Sequence record: PV390659.2
From: Escherichia phage vB_EcoM_P8
Length of the DNA: 64,000 nucleotides
Strand: one strand, 5' to 3'
Part shown: in pieces, positions 9,293 through 52,378 of the stretch
Layout: the number at the start of each line of letters is the position of its first letter
How positions within the stretch are numbered: the first letter of the stretch is position 1
The notes under the pieces: generated by a model
The model's input: the letters and a program-made list of their open reading frames with translations, nothing else
Databases searched by the model: none
What the model was told of the DNA's origin: nothing
Program-made: the position numbers and the translations under genes

Positions 9293-9324
9293 CATAAAAA
9301 CAACTAAAGGGACCCGAAGGTCCC
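9293..9324 (-). terminator. terminator downstream of gene 23
   Basis: GGGACCCGAAGGTCCC hairpin followed on minus strand by T-rich tract. Confidence 0.7.
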
Positions 9325-9339
9325 TTAAATCGTCAAAGA

Positions 9340-10905
9340 TTAGATACCTTTAACATATACACGGCGGAAGTAAGCGTTTTTACCAAGGCTATTCAGAATA
9401 GAAGGCATACCGCTTTGAATGCGAGAAGCCGGAGCCTGAGCAGCGGATTCTGCAAATGGGTTGATACCGATACCGTAACGAGTTTTGAATCCCATTACTG
9501 GTTGGAAGTTCTTCGGATCGGAACCACGCAGCGGAGTCAGAGCTACATATGGAGCATAGTAAATACCAGCATCCATTTCGTTCGGACCTTTATAACCTAC
9601 AGTGAAATAATCCTGTTTAGCATACTGGTCGATATATACACGGTATTTACCACCCAGAACACCAGCAAATACTGACTTGGTAGTATCAGTGTTAAAGCCG
9701 GTAGCCAGACCCTGTGCAGCATAAGAAATGCCAGTATCAACTGAAGCCAGAACGTTAACTACGTTACGGGAAGCGATAATGAAGTTACCTTCACCACGAC
9801 CGGTCTGACGAGCAATTTCAACTGCTTCTTTGTCAATCTGGAACAACAGAGCTTTAAAGGATTCACCCGCCCAGCGAGCACCACGAATATCAATCGGATC
9901 CTGGAAGTCAAATACACCAGCTTTAGAACCCGGAGTCAGGGTCATACCAGATTTACCAACCTGAGCTGAGTAGTTAATCCAATCAACAACTTCACGGTTA
10001 ATTTCCAGCATGATTTCGGTAGCCAGAATACCAGACAGTTCAGCATCAGCATCCATACCGTGAACAGCGCGGAGGTCTTGTGCTAATTCGATAGAGTAAG
10101 CAGCTTTCAGCTGACGAGATTTAGCTTCGATAACTTGTTTATCGATACGGAAGCCCATTTCATTCCATGGGTTATCGGTAGAACCGTTGAAACCTTCCTG
10201 AAGTTCAGCGATAGAAGTAGCCATACCTTCAGCGATTTCTACCAGTACACCAGCTTCCATTTGTTTCTTAATTTCAGCATCTAATTTAGCTGCATCAGTT
10301 GCGCTTGCACTAATTGTTACTTGAGCAGAAGCCTGCAGATACACAGTACCAGTGTCCTGGAAGAAGTGAGTATAGATATCACCTACTGTGGTTTCTGTGC
10401 TAGCAGCCAGAGCCGGGAATTTCTTAGCAGCACCCTGACCAGAGAACATTGCATCTGGACCATACATTGGGTGGAATGCTTCTTTAGCACCGGAAGCGAT
10501 TGGGTCTTTACCATATACTGCACGCAGTGCGAATACCTGGCCAGTCGGGCTGTTCATCGGCTGAACACCACAAATATCGAAAGCAATCAGGTTAGGAATA
10601 GCACGACGTACCATACCCATAACAGCTGGGCCAATCTGAGTTACTGCGCCAGAAGTCTGACCAGCAGCGATGTTAGTAGCATTGTAACCGTGGTCACCAC
10701 CGATTTCAGCTTCTGTTAAGAAAGAACCGAACGCCTGAGCGATTTTTTCGTCTTTGTACTCTGGAGCTGTCTGGAAATCTTTTTCCTGGTTTTCAAAGAT
10801 TTTAGCGATAATCGCTTGTTTGCTATTAGCAATTTCCGGTAAACCTTCACCTTCCAGTAATGGCTTCCATTTGTTCAAAAGTTCAGCTTTAGTTTTGATA
10901 GTCAT
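9340..10905 (-). CDS. 23: major capsid protein gp23
   Basis: 521 aa; recognised T4 gp23 N-terminus MTIKTKAELLNKWKPLLEGEGLPEIANSKQAIIAKIFENQ. Confidence 0.95.
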   Translation of the reverse strand: MTIKTKAELLNKWKPLLEGEGLPEIANSKQAIIAKIFENQEKDFQTAPEYKDEKIAQAFGSFLTEAEIGGDHGYNATNIAAGQTSGAVTQIGPAVMGMVRRAIPNLIAFDICGVQPMNSPTGQVFALRAVYGKDPIASGAKEAFHPMYGPDAMFSGQGAAKKFPALAASTETTVGDIYTHFFQDTGTVYLQASAQVTISASATDAAKLDAEIKKQMEAGVLVEIAEGMATSIAELQEGFNGSTDNPWNEMGFRIDKQVIEAKSRQLKAAYSIELAQDLRAVHGMDADAELSGILATEIMLEINREVVDWINYSAQVGKSGMTLTPGSKAGVFDFQDPIDIRGARWAGESFKALLFQIDKEAVEIARQTGRGEGNFIIASRNVVNVLASVDTGISYAAQGLATGFNTDTTKSVFAGVLGGKYRVYIDQYAKQDYFTVGYKGPNEMDAGIYYAPYVALTPLRGSDPKNFQPVMGFKTRYGIGINPFAESAAQAPASRIQSGMPSILNSLGKNAYFRRVYVKGI

Positions 10906-23728: not shown

Positions 23729-25279
23729 TTAGTAATGAATTTTAATAATATAGTTTAATGATATATTCCATGGTCTAGTTTCATAACCAATTAATCCTTC
23801 ACGATTAAGTGTACCAAGGGCATCTCTCGGTCCACCCAATTCAAATCCATCATTAGTGAAGTATGAAGCATTATCCCAGTCGGCATATTTTCTAGTTCCA
23901 AGATATCCTTGATAAACGGACGCGCCAAATGGAGCTTCATGTCTTTGGTATTCTCCCCAACCACCAGCGTGTTTATGGTATGACATTTGTTGTGCCTGAA
24001 CACCACCAACATGCATTCCGTCACATCCTACACCAAGTCTATCCTTCCCATAGCCATCTTGTCCTCGTTGATTTAAAATATGACCGCCCGTGCCAGCTCC
24101 TCTAACAAAAAGACCTCGCATATCAGGAATGCCAGGGTTATTCCAATCACCACCAAATCTCGTTCCAACTGTGTTTCTATAATCAGGATATTGATCTCCT
24201 GACACGGTTCCACCATGGCACATAATCCAACCCGGAGGTGCTGAATCTCCCGCAAACATCATAATAGTTCCAACTGGAACCCTTTCTGACGCATATCTTT
24301 CAGTGGCAACAGGTTGATCGCCATTTTTCCACATTCCGCCGCGCGACCAAATTCCGTTTGCTGTAAGATGGTCTAAATTTAAAGAACCATTAATAGTTTG
24401 TCCACCACGAGTATTAATTACATCTGCGTTCCATGCTAATGCACCAGAGCTATCACCTTCAGGGGCAATACCGGCTTGCGTCGTTAATTTAACTACTCCA
24501 CGCATAGAACCAGTAGCTCCTCGACCATTTAGTGTTTCACCTGTTACTGCAACATCTCCTAAATTACTGTTAACTTCCGATTGTGTTCCTAAACGTATAA
24601 CACCCTTATATTCTTGTGTTGCAACAGAATTCATAAAGGTATACGGAGAAATTGCATATCCTTCGCGGAGAGTTCCTTGACGAGTTTGCGCAACAGTAGA
24701 TAATTGAACTACACCTCTCACAGATTCTGATGCAGTATCTTCGGAAGGAGCTATTTGTGAAATTAATTTTATTGCAAGTTTTTGCGTTTTTAATGGAGTC
24801 ATTGCCGTAGTATCATCAACTCCAGCTAAAGCTGCAGGTGTAGATGATATTTTAATAACCCCGTTTGATGACTCAGACGAATATCTATTTTGGAACACAT
24901 CGTCAGTATGGTATTTCAGTTTTTGCGGCGTTATTGATGAATTATTATCTGAGCCTTCTAATGTTTCTTCATTTGTTGAATAGCGCGTTAAACCATACTT
25001 AGTTTCAGTAGCATTTGGATACAATAATCTTGTTGCTAATGTAGCTGGTGTAACGATTTTAGAATTATTAGTTCCATCTAAAACCTCTTGCTCTGACGCA
25101 ATCATTGCTATTCCTTTAACTTCCATAGTTGCATCAGGAATACCATTTACGCCGATATTACTTATTTTTGATAATGCAGACTGCACTGTCGTGACAGTGT
25201 CAGGAAAATTCGATCCTACTGGATCGAATTTAACATATTTTGATTCATTTGATACGTGCTGATATGTATTGTTACTCAT
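23729..25279 (-). CDS. 12: short tail fiber protein gp12
   Basis: 516 aa, T4 synteny. Confidence 0.85.
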
Positions 25280-43128: not shown

Positions 43129-43214
43129 GAATTATTTGTTATTATTAACTTATATCGCATTGATTAATACCCTCTATCATCAAGGGTTCTTTCCTGAGAG
43201 CCTTTGTTAATAAT

Positions 43215-43287
43215 TGGGAATTAGCCAAGTTGGTAAGGCACTGGATTTTGATTCCAGGATGCAAAGGTTCGAGTCCTTTATTCCCAG
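43215..43287 (+). tRNA. tRNA-Gln (anticodon UUG)
   Basis: Cloverleaf read by eye: acceptor TGGGAAT/ATTCCCA, anticodon loop TTTTGAT, T-arm GGTTCGAGTCC. Confidence 0.85.
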
Positions 43288-43288
43288 C

Positions 43289-43375
43289 GCGAGAATGGTC
43301 AAATTGGTAAAGGCACAGCACTTAAAATGCTGCGGAATGATTTCCTTGTGGGTTCGAGTCCCACTTCTCGCACCA
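43289..43375 (+). tRNA. tRNA-Leu (anticodon UAA), class II, CCA encoded
   Basis: Acceptor GCGAGAA/TTCTCGC, anticodon loop CTTAAAA, long variable arm. Confidence 0.85.
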
Positions 43376-43380
43376 AATTT

Positions 43381-43454
<74 letters not shown>

Positions 43455-43464
43455 ATTTAATTTA

Positions 43465-43538
43465 CTCCGTGTAGCTCAGTTTGGTAGAGCGCCTGATTTG
43501 GGATCAGGAGGTCCAAGGTTCAAATCCTTGTATGGAGA
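43465..43538 (+). tRNA. tRNA-Pro (anticodon UGG)
   Basis: Anticodon stem CCTGA/TCAGG, loop TTTGGGA, T-arm GGTTCAAATCC. Confidence 0.8.
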
Positions 43539-43540
43539 CT

Positions 43541-43630
43541 GGAGGCGTGGCAGAGTGGTTTAATGCACCGGTCTTGAAAACCGGCAGTCGCTCCGGCGAC
43601 TCATAGGTTCAAATCCTATCGCCTCCGCCA
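43541..43630 (+). tRNA. tRNA-Ser (anticodon UGA), class II, CCA encoded
   Basis: Acceptor GGAGGCG/CGCCTCC, anticodon loop CTTGAAA, long variable arm. Confidence 0.85.
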
Positions 43631-43635
43631 GTTTT

Positions 43636-43711
43636 GCTGATTTAGCTCAGTAGGTAGAGCAACTCACTTGTAATGAGAAGGTCGGCGGTTCGATTCCGTC
43701 AATCAGCACCA
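43636..43711 (+). tRNA. tRNA-Thr (anticodon UGU), CCA encoded
   Basis: Acceptor GCTGATT/AATCAGC, anticodon loop CTTGTAA. Confidence 0.85.
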
Positions 43712-43712
43712 A

Positions 43713-43787
43713 GGCCCTGTAGCTGGAAGGTTCAAGCAAGCGACTCATAATCGTCAGATGGTGGTTCAATTCCACCCAGGGCCACCA
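43713..43787 (+). tRNA. tRNA with CAU anticodon (Ile2-type, as T4 tRNA-Ile; Met cannot be excluded from sequence alone)
   Basis: Acceptor GGCCCTG/CAGGGCC, anticodon loop CTCATAA, CCA encoded. Confidence 0.8.
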
Positions 43788-43800
43788 AATTAAGAATTAA

Positions 43801-43887
43801 GGGGAGTTATCCCGTAGAGGTAGCGGTGTGGACTGTAAATCCATTGTCATTGCGACTCGGGTGGTTCGACTCCATCACTCCCCACCA
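43801..43887 (+). tRNA. tRNA-Tyr-like (anticodon GUA), class II
   Basis: Perfect 7-bp acceptor GGGGAGT/ACTCCCC, anticodon stem GTGGA/TCCAT with loop CTGTAAA, long variable arm, T-arm GGTGGTTCGACTCCATC, CCA encoded. Confidence 0.65.
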
Positions 43888-43891
43888 ATTT

Positions 43892-43966
43892 GGATGTGTA
43901 GCTCAATGGCAGAGCGATCGCCTGTTAAGCGATTGGTTATAGGTTCGAATCCTATCACGTCCGCCA
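43892..43966 (+). tRNA. tRNA-Asn (anticodon GUU)
   Basis: Acceptor GGATGTG/CACGTCC, D-arm GCTCAATGGCAGAGC, anticodon stem ATCGC/GCGAT loop CTGTTAA, CCA encoded. Confidence 0.75.
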
Positions 43967-43970
43967 AATC

Positions 43971-44046
43971 CGAGGCATAGCTCAGAAGGAAGAGCAAGGA
44001 CCTTCTAAGTCCTAGGTCGTAGGTTCGATCCCTACTGCCTCGACCA
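43971..44046 (+). tRNA. tRNA-Arg (anticodon UCU)
   Basis: Perfect acceptor CGAGGCA/TGCCTCG, anticodon loop CTTCTAA, CCA encoded. Confidence 0.85.
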
Positions 44047-44062
44047 ATTAAGTGAGGAAAAT

Positions 44063-44413
44063 ATGAAAGGTAATGTTTATTTAGTAGTTCATGATTTAAC
44101 ATTCTATTTTAATCATAATGACACTGTTATTTCTGAACGTGTAATTAATTTACTTTATCAGCATGCAGATTATGTTTATGTCGAAAACGAATATGGTCAT
44201 TGGCAATTTCTCAAAAATCGTTCATTTGGTTTAGATGGTTACGAATATTTTGAACGTAAAGACCTTTTAGATAAAATTCCGTTATCTACACAATATCAAA
44301 ATCATAAGTCTTTATATAAATGCCGTCCAATTCGAAATGCTGAATCTGCGTATGAAGTAATTGATTTATGGCGTAAACGTCGTGAACAGGTTGATGCTTT
44401 AAAAGAATACTAA
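44063..44413 (+). CDS. hypothetical protein between tRNA cluster and structured RNA region
   Basis: 116 aa ORF, GAGGAAA RBS 7 nt upstream. Confidence 0.6.
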   Translation: MKGNVYLVVHDLTFYFNHNDTVISERVINLLYQHADYVYVENEYGHWQFLKNRSFGLDGYEYFERKDLLDKIPLSTQYQNHKSLYKCRPIRNAESAYEVIDLWRKRREQVDALKEY

Positions 44414-44419
44414 GAAACC

Positions 44420-44720
44420 GGGTCGCTACCGGTAAGTCGTCGGACTGATGTTCCCTGGAGTATAGTTTCTCCCACAGTTTTACTGTGTTCTGATTCTTTA
44501 CTATCACAGCAGAAACGGCGCACCGAATTATCGATTCGAGGAAATATCTTTGCCGTAAGCCGAGTAGCGTTTTTGGCGGAACGTTCGGATATGGTCGAGA
44601 TATGGCCTTTTAAAAATATTGAGTAGCGTCAACTGCTTAATAACCGGGTTCGAATCCCGGCGTTTCGTACAAACACTTGCCTTAGCAGGTGGAACCCCGA
44701 CAAGGTTGCCGCAAGGCTTA
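44420..44720 (+). ncRNA. non-coding structured region, possibly T4 small stable RNA (species 1/2, rnaC/rnaD) homologs
   Basis: About 300 nt with no ORF, tRNA-like T-arm CCGGGTTCGAATCCCGG at 44643-44659, ends at a strong terminator; location after tRNA-Arg matches my recollection of T4. Confidence 0.4.
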
Positions 44721-44747
44721 GCCCCGACCGAAAGGTTGGGGCTTTTT
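44721..44747 (+). terminator. rho-independent terminator (copy 1 of duplicated element)
   Basis: GCCCCGACCGAAAGGTTGGGGC hairpin plus TTTTT. Confidence 0.8.
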
Positions 44748-44749
44748 AG

Positions 44750-44757
44750 TATAAATA
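44750..44757 (+). promoter_or_regulatory. late promoter for internal-protein-like gene
   Basis: TATAAATA 40 bp upstream of ATG 44798. Confidence 0.6.
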
Positions 44758-44797
44758 TAGTAGTATATTAAATCCACGAATTAAAACAGGAAATAAG

Positions 44798-51460: not shown

Positions 51461-51786
51461 TGACAGACACGCAACTTTTCGAATATCTTTATTTTTCGCC
51501 AAAAACTATTAAAAATAAATTGGTGAATCATTTTGAAATTTTGGCAAATAACAACGTCTTGAGCGAATTTTATCCTAAGCAATACAAATTACAAAAAGGC
51601 GTATTCAAAGGATGCAGAGTTTTGTGTACTGCTCCTAATGCAAGATTAATGAATAAAATTCCATATTTTACCATGGAATTTATTGATGGACCTTTTAAAG
51701 GACTAATCACCCAAAGTTTAATGGCATATGATTCTGAGCCATTTTTAATTAAAGAGCAATCTTGGATAAATTTATTTTCTAATTGA
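51457..51786 (+). CDS. hypothetical protein
   Basis: 109 aa from ATG overlapping upstream stop (ATGATGA). Confidence 0.5.
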
Positions 51787-51794
51787 GAGGTTAT

Positions 51795-52157
51795 ATGAAA
51801 GCATATCAAATTCTTGAAGGCACGCATAAAGGTACTATTTATTTTGAAGATGGTATTCAAGCACGAATTATTGTCTCTAAAACCTTTAAAGAGGACTCTT
51901 TTGTAGACCCGGAAATTTTCTACGGTTTGCATGCCCGTGAAATTGAAATTGAAACACAACCTACAGTTAAAATTGAAGGTGGTCAACACCTGAACGTTAA
52001 CGTTCTGCGTCGTGAAACTCTGGAAGATGCAGTTAAGCATCCGGAAAAATATCCGCAGCTGACCATCCGTGTATCCGGTTATGCAGTTCGCTTTAACTCT
52101 CTGACTCCGGAACAGCAGCGCGACGTTATCGCTCGTACCTTTACCGAGAGTCTGTAA
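51795..52157 (+). CDS. autonomous glycyl radical cofactor (GrcA/YfiD-like)
   Basis: C-terminal [29 protein letters not shown] glycyl-radical motif, matching E. coli GrcA as I recall it; GAGAGG RBS. Confidence 0.8.
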
Positions 52158-52378
52158 TGGCAAAGATAATTATTGAAGGTTCTAAAGATGTGCTAAATGC
52201 TTTCGCCGAGTGGTTTAGTAATTCAGGCGAACAGCAATTTAATGAAGCATGGAATATGGGTGATATTGATGGAATTTATCCTACGACAGAAATTTCTGTT
52301 CAGGGATATGGCATTCATGAACCTATTCGTTTAGTTGAATATGATTTAGGTACTGGTGAGGAAGTAAAATATGATTGA
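52157..52378 (+). CDS. hypothetical protein
   Basis: 73 aa ORF, ATGA-type overlap with upstream gene. Confidence 0.5.
   Translation: MAKIIIEGSKDVLNAFAEWFSNSGEQQFNEAWNMGDIDGIYPTTEISVQGYGIHEPIRLVEYDLGTGEEVKYD

Follow-up and report, generated by a model that had tools for sequence, protein, structure and literature searches.

Two 'spare part' proteins for oxygen-damaged pyruvate formate-lyase (PFL) are experimentally validated according to PMC8683613, which cites Wagner et al. 2001: YfiD of E. coli and Y06I of phage T4. As reported there, PFL activase installs the glycyl radical on YfiD or Y06I, the complex with oxygen-cleaved PFL regains activity, and T4 Y06I was purified and assayed as a protein. 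The same source describes the C-terminal glycyl-radical domain of PflB as the piece that oxygen cleavage removes and for which the spare part substitutes. A comparison of T4-like genomes from 2006 noted the Gly_radical Pfam match of vs.6, the T4 gene for Y06I, and suggested a role in nucleotide metabolism (PMC1524935). With regard to the exchange of DNA between a phage gene and its host homolog, PMC3900582 describes intragenic recombination of cyanophage psbA and psbD with host photosystem genes, resulting in patchy GC content.

Here, we describe the vs.6 gene of Escherichia phage vB_EcoM_P8 (PV390659.2). The analysed window comprises 64,000 nt of this genome, and positions refer to it. The coding sequence extends from 51795 to 52157 on the plus strand, starts with ATG, ends with TAA and encodes 120 amino acids, as taken from the ORF list and translation. 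A Shine-Dalgarno-like GAGAGG, read off the sequence at 51785..51790 (plus strand), lies 4 nt 5' of the ATG and is overlapped by the TGA stop of vs.7 (51784-51786). On the other side, the TAA of vs.6 overlaps the ATG of vs.5 (52157), the genes being closely spaced. The DNA is 100% identical to the gene of Escherichia phage vB_EcoM_BMB16, where it is annotated as 'autonomous glycyl radical cofactor', and 97.8% identical to T4; the protein differs from T4 Y06I in a single amino acid (T54P). A preliminary description of the locus had named Y06I as a homolog known from the literature. This is correct, given the validated role reported for Y06I in PMC8683613 (citing Wagner et al. 2001), but it understates the relation: the genome belongs to a Tequatrovirus, and its segment 51795-52157 is orthologous to T4 vs.6/Y06I, with the same host-like tract as in T4.

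The cluster of early genes around vs.6 reads denV ... vs.8-vs.7-vs.6-vs.5-vs.4 ... regB, vs.1, vs, tk, and the synteny of vs.8-vs.7-vs.6-vs.5 between denV and regB/vs/tk is retained in BMB16 and RB69. The profile phrog_1209 matches the protein over its full length (1-120 of 121 positions, E=5e-63); the label of PHROG 1209 still reads 'unknown function'. Promoter and terminator scans around vs.6 gave no signal above shuffled expectation. An antisense ORF of 197 aa on the minus strand (51570-52163), which spans all of vs.6, is open in the window phage, in T4 and in E. coli grcA. Stop codons disrupt it in RB69, Jiaodavirus, Karamvirus, RB43 and T5; it was rejected as spurious and probably represents a by-product of codon bias.

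At the protein level, the proposed identity as a GrcA/YfiD-like glycyl-radical cofactor is well supported. Gly_radical (PF01228) is the sole Pfam domain (E=2.2e-18, 67 bits with a cut-off of 22), the best PDB match is YfiD (6OWR, E=4.6e-42), and TIGR04365 is the top NCBIfam match (E=1.4e-45). The protein stays below the equivalog cut-off of TIGR04365 (154.6 vs 170 bits) because its N-terminal half is phage-specific; this gap is a formal one only, as the T4 ortholog has direct biochemical support. With about 14 kDa, the product is a small stand-alone glycyl-radical domain, in keeping with the size and layout of GrcA. The motif RVSGYAV occupies residues 92-98, and alignment with 6OWR and with PflB 697-759 places Gly95 (codon at 52077..52079, plus strand) opposite G102 of YfiD and G734 of PflB; the role of this glycine is taken from PMC8683613. 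Over residues 61-120 (EGGQHL...TESL, 60 aa), the protein shows no difference from E. coli GrcA 68-127, in line with the preliminary description, and the N-terminal half is divergent as it had proposed, with 19 identities to GrcA in 59 residues. This N-terminus, MKAYQILEG..., is common to the T4-like genera and still recognisable in T5 (MKAYQNL). Judged from this distribution, the N-terminal half of vs.6 is an old phage feature.

The DNA of the gene falls into three parts on the plus strand. A phage-type 5' part (51795..51972) comprises codons 1-59 and the first base of codon 60, has a GC content of 0.34 and agrees with E. coli grcA in approximately 47% of its nucleotides and in 19 of 59 amino acids. 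It is followed by a tract of 172 nt (51973..52144) that appears to be host-derived by conversion, with a GC content of 0.49 and 100% identity to nt 200-371 of K-12-type E. coli grcA; direct alignment of 51973-52144 gives 172 of 172 positions identical to this allele. The remainder is a phage-type 3' tail (52145..52157), which reads ACC GAG AGT CTG TAA vs ACT GAA AGC CTG TAA in E. coli. Only three mismatches to the K-12-type allele occur 3' of the tract (52145, 52148 and 52151), all of them synonymous and within the last 13 nt, and past the vs.6 stop direct alignment shows no similarity to the E. coli grcA region. With no more than about 47% identity in the 5' part and three differences in the tail of 13 nt, both junctions lie inside the ORF. 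The 5' junction falls within codon 60 (ATT in the phage, GTT in the host), at the start of the conserved EGGQHLNV block; the 3' junction is found approximately 13 nt ahead of the stop. As read from these junctions, the pattern is that left when diverged homologs undergo patch-type homologous recombination, and not that of a host gene captured whole.

Composition changes together with sequence identity. GC content is 0.343 in 51795-51972 and 0.494 in 51973-52144, with a window mean of 0.359, and GC3 rises from 0.22 in the 5' part to 0.44 in the tract; the composition of the gene is clearly not uniform. The preliminary description had seen GC-richer, E. coli-like DNA at about 51960-52157 and had suspected a chimera formed by recombination with host grcA. 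The composition step and the chimera are borne out, the 3' half being host-like in composition as well as in sequence (172/172), while the exact boundary is shifted to 51973. It had also implied one recombination boundary; the 5' junction agrees with this, but a second junction is found inside the ORF, about 13 nt before the stop. An alignment with T4, which it had recommended for locating the boundary, is uninformative since T4 carries the same tract. Genera without the tract (Karamvirus, Krischvirus, Pseudotevenvirus and T5-like phages) and host alleles were used as comparators instead.

Only 1% of the 172-nt windows in the 64 kb are equally GC-rich, most of them in the tRNA cluster. Two further regions, 9303-10800 and 23868-24483, show local GC peaks of 0.50-0.53 (172-nt windows) and have no megablast match in E. 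coli. Composition alone therefore does not mark host DNA in the window. The GC-rich tRNA cluster itself (about 43212-44792) contains a segment, 43797-43952, with the sole megablast matches besides grcA, namely 83-90% to tRNA-Tyr and tRNA-Thr on E. coli plasmids of about 95-100 kb, which are perhaps phage-plasmids.

The tail is mosaic among related phages: at the four sites ACT/ACC, GAA/GAG, AGC/AGT and CTG/TTG/CTA, they show many combinations, and the tract ends at differing points on its 3' side. All eight Mosigvirus-type sequences but one chimeric contig (OCHD01000040.1, see below) have CTA as their last Leu codon, for which Tequatrovirus has TTG or CTG. T4 matches E. coli grcA without interruption over 178 nt. 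The most host-like copy that we observed belongs to the Tequatrovirus Escherichia phage OES_C-2 (locus 623-985), where all but one of 185 nt agree with E. coli, nearly to the stop; this phage also has a 6-nt deletion in the EIEIE repeat, which leaves EIE.

With BLASTN, the segment 51973-52157 (185 nt) matches grcA in each of 5,426 complete E. coli genomes (5,426/5,426) at 95-99% identity. When the whole 64-kb window is compared with the same genomes by megablast, there is no chromosomal match besides the grcA tract. Identity of this degree has to be judged against protein conservation, for which phages with equally conserved proteins provide a baseline: in such genera, identity to any host grcA amounts to no more than 71-85%, and genera that lack the tract but have a similarly conserved C-terminus share 128-155 of 183 positions with E. 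coli or other hosts. In a wider set, when the final 183 nt are compared, copies from Karamvirus, Krischvirus, Pseudotevenvirus, Slopekvirus, T5-like phages and jumbo phages share 116-155 positions with E. coli grcA, and their best matches among 80 grcA genes of Enterobacteria and Pasteurellaceae fall in a similar range. On the host side, Citrobacter, Trabulsiella and Salmonella have the same or nearly the same C-terminus, but at 15-30 of 183 sites their grcA does not agree with that of E. coli; the next-best host outside Escherichia is Citrobacter, whose grcA encodes the same C-terminal protein and reaches 167-168/183. Since the unconverted phages and Citrobacter grcA score lower, the identity of the tract is far above the level of protein conservation, as the preliminary description had expected from such a BLASTN comparison. 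On these alignments, the phage tract is specifically Escherichia DNA, and it had an ancestor in common with living alleles of E. coli very recently. PflB and TdcE were considered as donors and ruled out by their protein differences in the tract. An IMG/VR locus that seemed to be a phage case with 91% identity to Yersinia turned out to be a bacterial-type grcA (N-terminus MITGIQ...) and was dropped.

Two further phage copies deserve mention in their own right. Aeromonas phage ZPAH1 (locus 526-912) has its grcA-like gene directly after nrdD/nrdG and before thioredoxin and glutaredoxin genes, and the encoded protein has a lysine-rich C-terminal extension. This genomic context is unlike that of vs.6 and suggests that the gene may be regulated together with further radical enzymes that are sensitive to oxygen. 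In phage T5 (locus 499-888), the annotated grcA-like CDS (520-888) overlaps an annotated tRNA-Met (499-574), and thus the true start of the T5 gene may lie further downstream.

The distribution of the tract among phages bears on its age. Approximately 640 phage records from Tequatrovirus and Mosigvirus carry it, all with an identical apparent 5' junction (grcA nt 199/200), and it is present in the T4 record X04567.1 of 1986. Tequatroviruses isolated on Yersinia or Citrobacter also contain the E. coli tract, which speaks against very frequent conversion. Of the fixed differences between the two genera, 11 fall in the 5' part and not one in the tract (Fisher p=8e-4), yet both parts are about equally polymorphic, with 34 variable sites in the 5' part and 27 in the tract. 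Compared with RB69, the window phage shows 70.6% identity in vs.7, 72.1% in vs.5, 90.4% in the 5' part of vs.6 and 98.8% in the tract. The dS values between Tequatrovirus and Mosigvirus are 0.31-0.46 in the 5' part vs 0.07-0.17 in the 3' part. Members of both genera have tracts without a single difference from E. coli. Measured against these divergences, the tract is younger than the phage genera. At the same time, 270A and 336A are shared by descent within Mosigvirus, and the variant set of the Tequatroviruses IME537, Killian and Nami is nested. Tract variants are inherited in phage lineages in these cases, and conversion is therefore too infrequent to erase the phage-lineage signal. Our detailed phage alignment consists of about 20 sequences.

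Further records came from two scans. A dereplicated IMG/VR scan yielded six loci of the Tequatrovirus/Mosigvirus type, and a metagenome scan, which returned mostly bacterial grcA together with at least 5 phage loci, served as the sample of host alleles. Contig OCHD01000040.1 (170,927 bp, Mosigvirus-like; locus about 580-1400) has a tract with the Mosigvirus variants 270A and 336A, and 3' of the tract it continues with E. coli DNA from the eamB side, 100% identical over more than 400 nt and about 1-2 kb from the contig end. Most likely, it is a chimera that arose when phage and host DNA were joined in assembly at the shared repeat; a genuine hybrid molecule of phage and host is possible. Two records labelled 'Pseudomonas phage' (PV654520.1 and OR584013.1) have a 3' half of vs.6 that is 97-99.5% identical to the window phage and E. 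coli grcA. They resemble ordinary Tequatroviruses, and their host labels may be unreliable.

Which alleles were donated can be examined from the variants within the tract. IME537, Killian and Nami, which form a Tequatrovirus subclade, carry 225A/306A/357T, and this combination is the grcA haplotype of E. coli O157:H7 TR01 and other strains. The variants 216T, 240C and 303A of other phages also equal Escherichia alleles. Altogether, 6 of the 27 variants in the phage tracts agree, by site as well as by base, with the 9 host variant states of 25 Escherichia-like sequences, mostly metagenomic, among the matches listed. With the approximately 20 phages compared, the hypergeometric probability of this coincidence is p=9e-7, or 6e-4 if third positions only are considered; a few of the shared sites could be due to parallel mutation. 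As 225A and 357T are also the states in Salmonella and other enterics, they are ancestral in the hosts, and the direction is therefore from host to phage. Taken as they stand, these variants apparently derive from more than one E. coli donor allele, in line with repeated, independent host input. A grouping of E. coli alleles into two classes by identity bins (3,136 vs 2,290 genomes) was rejected, as end-trimming by BLAST makes the bins ambiguous.

Jiaodavirus, a genus of Klebsiella phages, presents a parallel situation. In five vs.6 sequences of this genus, the 5' parts are mutually identical at 172-177 of 178 positions (97-99%), and the tracts behind them represent two haplotypes that are 12-13 of 172 sites apart (p=0.003-0.017). 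GC content is 0.54 in the tract and 0.365 in the 5' part. The tracts encode the Klebsiella-type residues LLDAVEH or LMDAVEH, and the tail encodes TEAL where the E. coli phages have TESL. One of the haplotypes is 94% identical to the grcA of a Raoultella MAG, vs 85% for the E. coli phages; as this is the best among the matches listed, and K. pneumoniae grcA is absent from our host loci, the donor is identified approximately. The Jiaodavirus tracts would thus represent a parallel conversion from donors of the Klebsiella/Raoultella type.

Taking the phage and host comparisons together, we hold with good confidence that the history of vs.6 is one of recurrent host-to-phage conversion of an old phage grcA homolog, and several other histories have to be weighed against it. 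A single conversion in the common ancestor of Tequatrovirus and Mosigvirus, followed by vertical descent, would explain why the apparent 5' junction is identical in all records and why some tract variants are inherited in phage lineages; identity to the host would then have to be held by nucleotide constraint, e.g., codon usage or mRNA structure, in a protein which is indeed extremely conserved. The shared junction in about 640 records is uninformative on the number of events, because homology ends there either way. Such a constraint is not visible among the enterobacterial hosts, which differ at 15-30 of 183 nt with an identical protein, and the tract, although its polymorphism equals that of the 5' part (27 vs 34 variable sites), has 0 vs 11 fixed differences. 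Moreover, phage variants reproduce host haplotypes, and Jiaodavirus has two tract types on one 5' background, so that we give a single ancient event little credence. Once acquired in one or very few host-to-phage events, the tract might also have spread by recombination between phages in co-infections, with the tract as a hot spot. T-even phages recombine readily, 240C and 345A are found in both genera, and the tract is the best-matching stretch between the genera in this region (98.8% vs 70-90% around it). This scenario leaves the Klebsiella-type tracts of Jiaodavirus unexplained, and without further host input it does not account for the occurrence of 225A/306A/357T, 303A and 216T in particular subclades. 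We regard it as unlikely, though far from implausible, as a replacement for host conversion; recombination between phages probably works alongside host conversion and moves tracts as well.

The two remaining alternatives question the direction and the reality of the transfer. Sequence identity by itself is symmetric, and survivors of abortive infection could in principle recombine with phage DNA, so that T-even phages might have been the source of the 3' half of E. coli grcA or of the polymorphisms in it. The GC content of 0.49 and the codon choice of the tract fit E. coli and not the phage (0.36), E. coli grcA is evenly related to grcA of Citrobacter, Salmonella and Trabulsiella with no break at nt 200, and the shared 225A and 357T are the states of other enterobacteria. 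For the tract as a whole, the reverse direction is effectively refuted, and we consider it highly improbable in general. Host reads or assembly chimeras could have produced a host-like 3' half, given that a shared repeat can mislead assemblers and that contig OCHD01000040.1 does pass from phage vs.6 via the tract into E. coli DNA downstream of grcA. Nevertheless, the structure with phage-type tail and vs.5 recurs in about 640 independent phage genomes and in the Sanger record X04567.1 from 1986, the frame is intact, and the T4 protein was purified and assayed as stated in PMC8683613. The chance that the mosaic is an artefact is practically negligible.

Recurrent host-to-phage conversion would then have proceeded as follows. 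T-even phages would have begun with an old, AT-rich grcA homolog that has its own N-terminal half. In the Tequatrovirus/Mosigvirus clade, the part that begins with the second base of codon 60 and reaches codon 117 would have been overwritten by E. coli grcA via homologous recombination, with both crossover points in the ORF at places of pre-existing similarity between phage and host. This conversion would have been repeated or refreshed several times from differing E. coli alleles. Homologous DNA inside the infected cell recombines efficiently with that of T4, and host DNA is fragmented early in T4 infection. Fragments of degraded host DNA may hence pair with vs.6 through the highly active recombination and repair system of T4; a phage 3' end would copy host sequence and then re-anneal, by copy-choice or strand-annealing repair. 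A tract that is already 100% host-like would be an even better substrate, such that it would evolve in concert with the host gene and not with the phage genome. A stronger version, in which frequent and ongoing conversion keeps the tract in concerted evolution with host grcA and imprints the allele of recent hosts, is a tentative proposal that we find possible but somewhat doubtful. If it were true, each T-even phage would carry a short imprint of the grcA allele, species or lineage of its recent hosts, vs.6 would be a natural reporter of phage-host homologous recombination that needs no selectable marker, and its tract might serve as a barcode that records the host history of Tevenvirinae, both for isolates and for metagenomes.

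The mosaic leaves the known biochemical role of the protein unchanged. By analogy with T4 Y06I, host PflA would put the radical on Gly95, the protein would dock on PFL whose C-terminal radical domain has been cut off by oxygen, and the rescued enzyme would again convert pyruvate to acetyl-CoA and formate during phage growth in a micro-oxic gut host. Relative to unconverted phage relatives, the conversion alters 2-13 residues of the Gly-radical domain, and an exact fit to host PflA and PflB is a possible benefit of the converted tract. A host-identical tract is not required, because Krischvirus phages that infect E. coli retain an unconverted copy with about 76% identity.

To our knowledge, T4 is usually portrayed as a phage that has essentially no DNA in common with its host and that destroys host DNA early in infection. 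Against this background stands a perfect 172-nt copy of a host gene inside a T4 gene, with variants that track E. coli alleles and with Klebsiella-type alleles in Klebsiella phages. The gene and its role were known before; with the host-identical tract, the model phage itself now provides a clean example of recurrent gene conversion from host to phage in an auxiliary metabolic gene. In the open full-text literature, we found no description of the vs.6 mosaic at the DNA level; an earlier remark in the T4 genome review (PMC150520) is possible. The locus provides a concrete natural case of homologous recombination between lytic phage and host in enterobacteria, a process previously best documented for cyanophage photosystem genes. 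From a practical point of view, the repeat is long enough for phage-host chimeric contigs in metagenome assemblies and can mislead host prediction and contamination filters. The vs.6/grcA pair could also be used to gauge how frequently host DNA enters a lytic phage genome, and which T4 functions are involved.

Among the described systems, T4 Y06I is the closest. Like the window gene, T4 vs.6 is located between vs.7 and vs.5 in the denV-regB-vs-tk early region and has the host-identical tract; it differs in that its E. coli-identical run ends later, with ACT GAA in T4 where the window phage has ACC GAG. E. coli GrcA (YfiD, 6OWR) shares the C-terminal 60 residues and 172 nt of identical DNA as well as a similar size and single-domain layout. 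The N-terminal part of the vs.6 protein is 7 residues shorter, however, and unlike E. coli grcA, vs.6 sits in an AT-rich cluster of phage early genes, outside the host's own regulation. The C-terminal glycyl-radical domain of PflB (PDB 1H16 etc.) aligns with its residues 697-759 to residues 58-120 of the vs.6 protein (E=5e-26). PflB differs from vs.6 at many residues of this stretch (e.g., VMNREMLLDAMEN), and because of these differences the donor of the tract is grcA and not the PFL gene. Cyanophage psbA resembles vs.6 in mode: a metabolic gene of host origin swaps internal segments with its host homolog, which leads to a GC-patchy mosaic. In vs.6, we likewise find a host-like internal segment with a composition step and, among about 20 phages, signs of repeated exchange. 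Gene, host and phage group are different in the two cases, and the vs.6 tract is a single patch of 172 nt with 100% identity to a living host allele.
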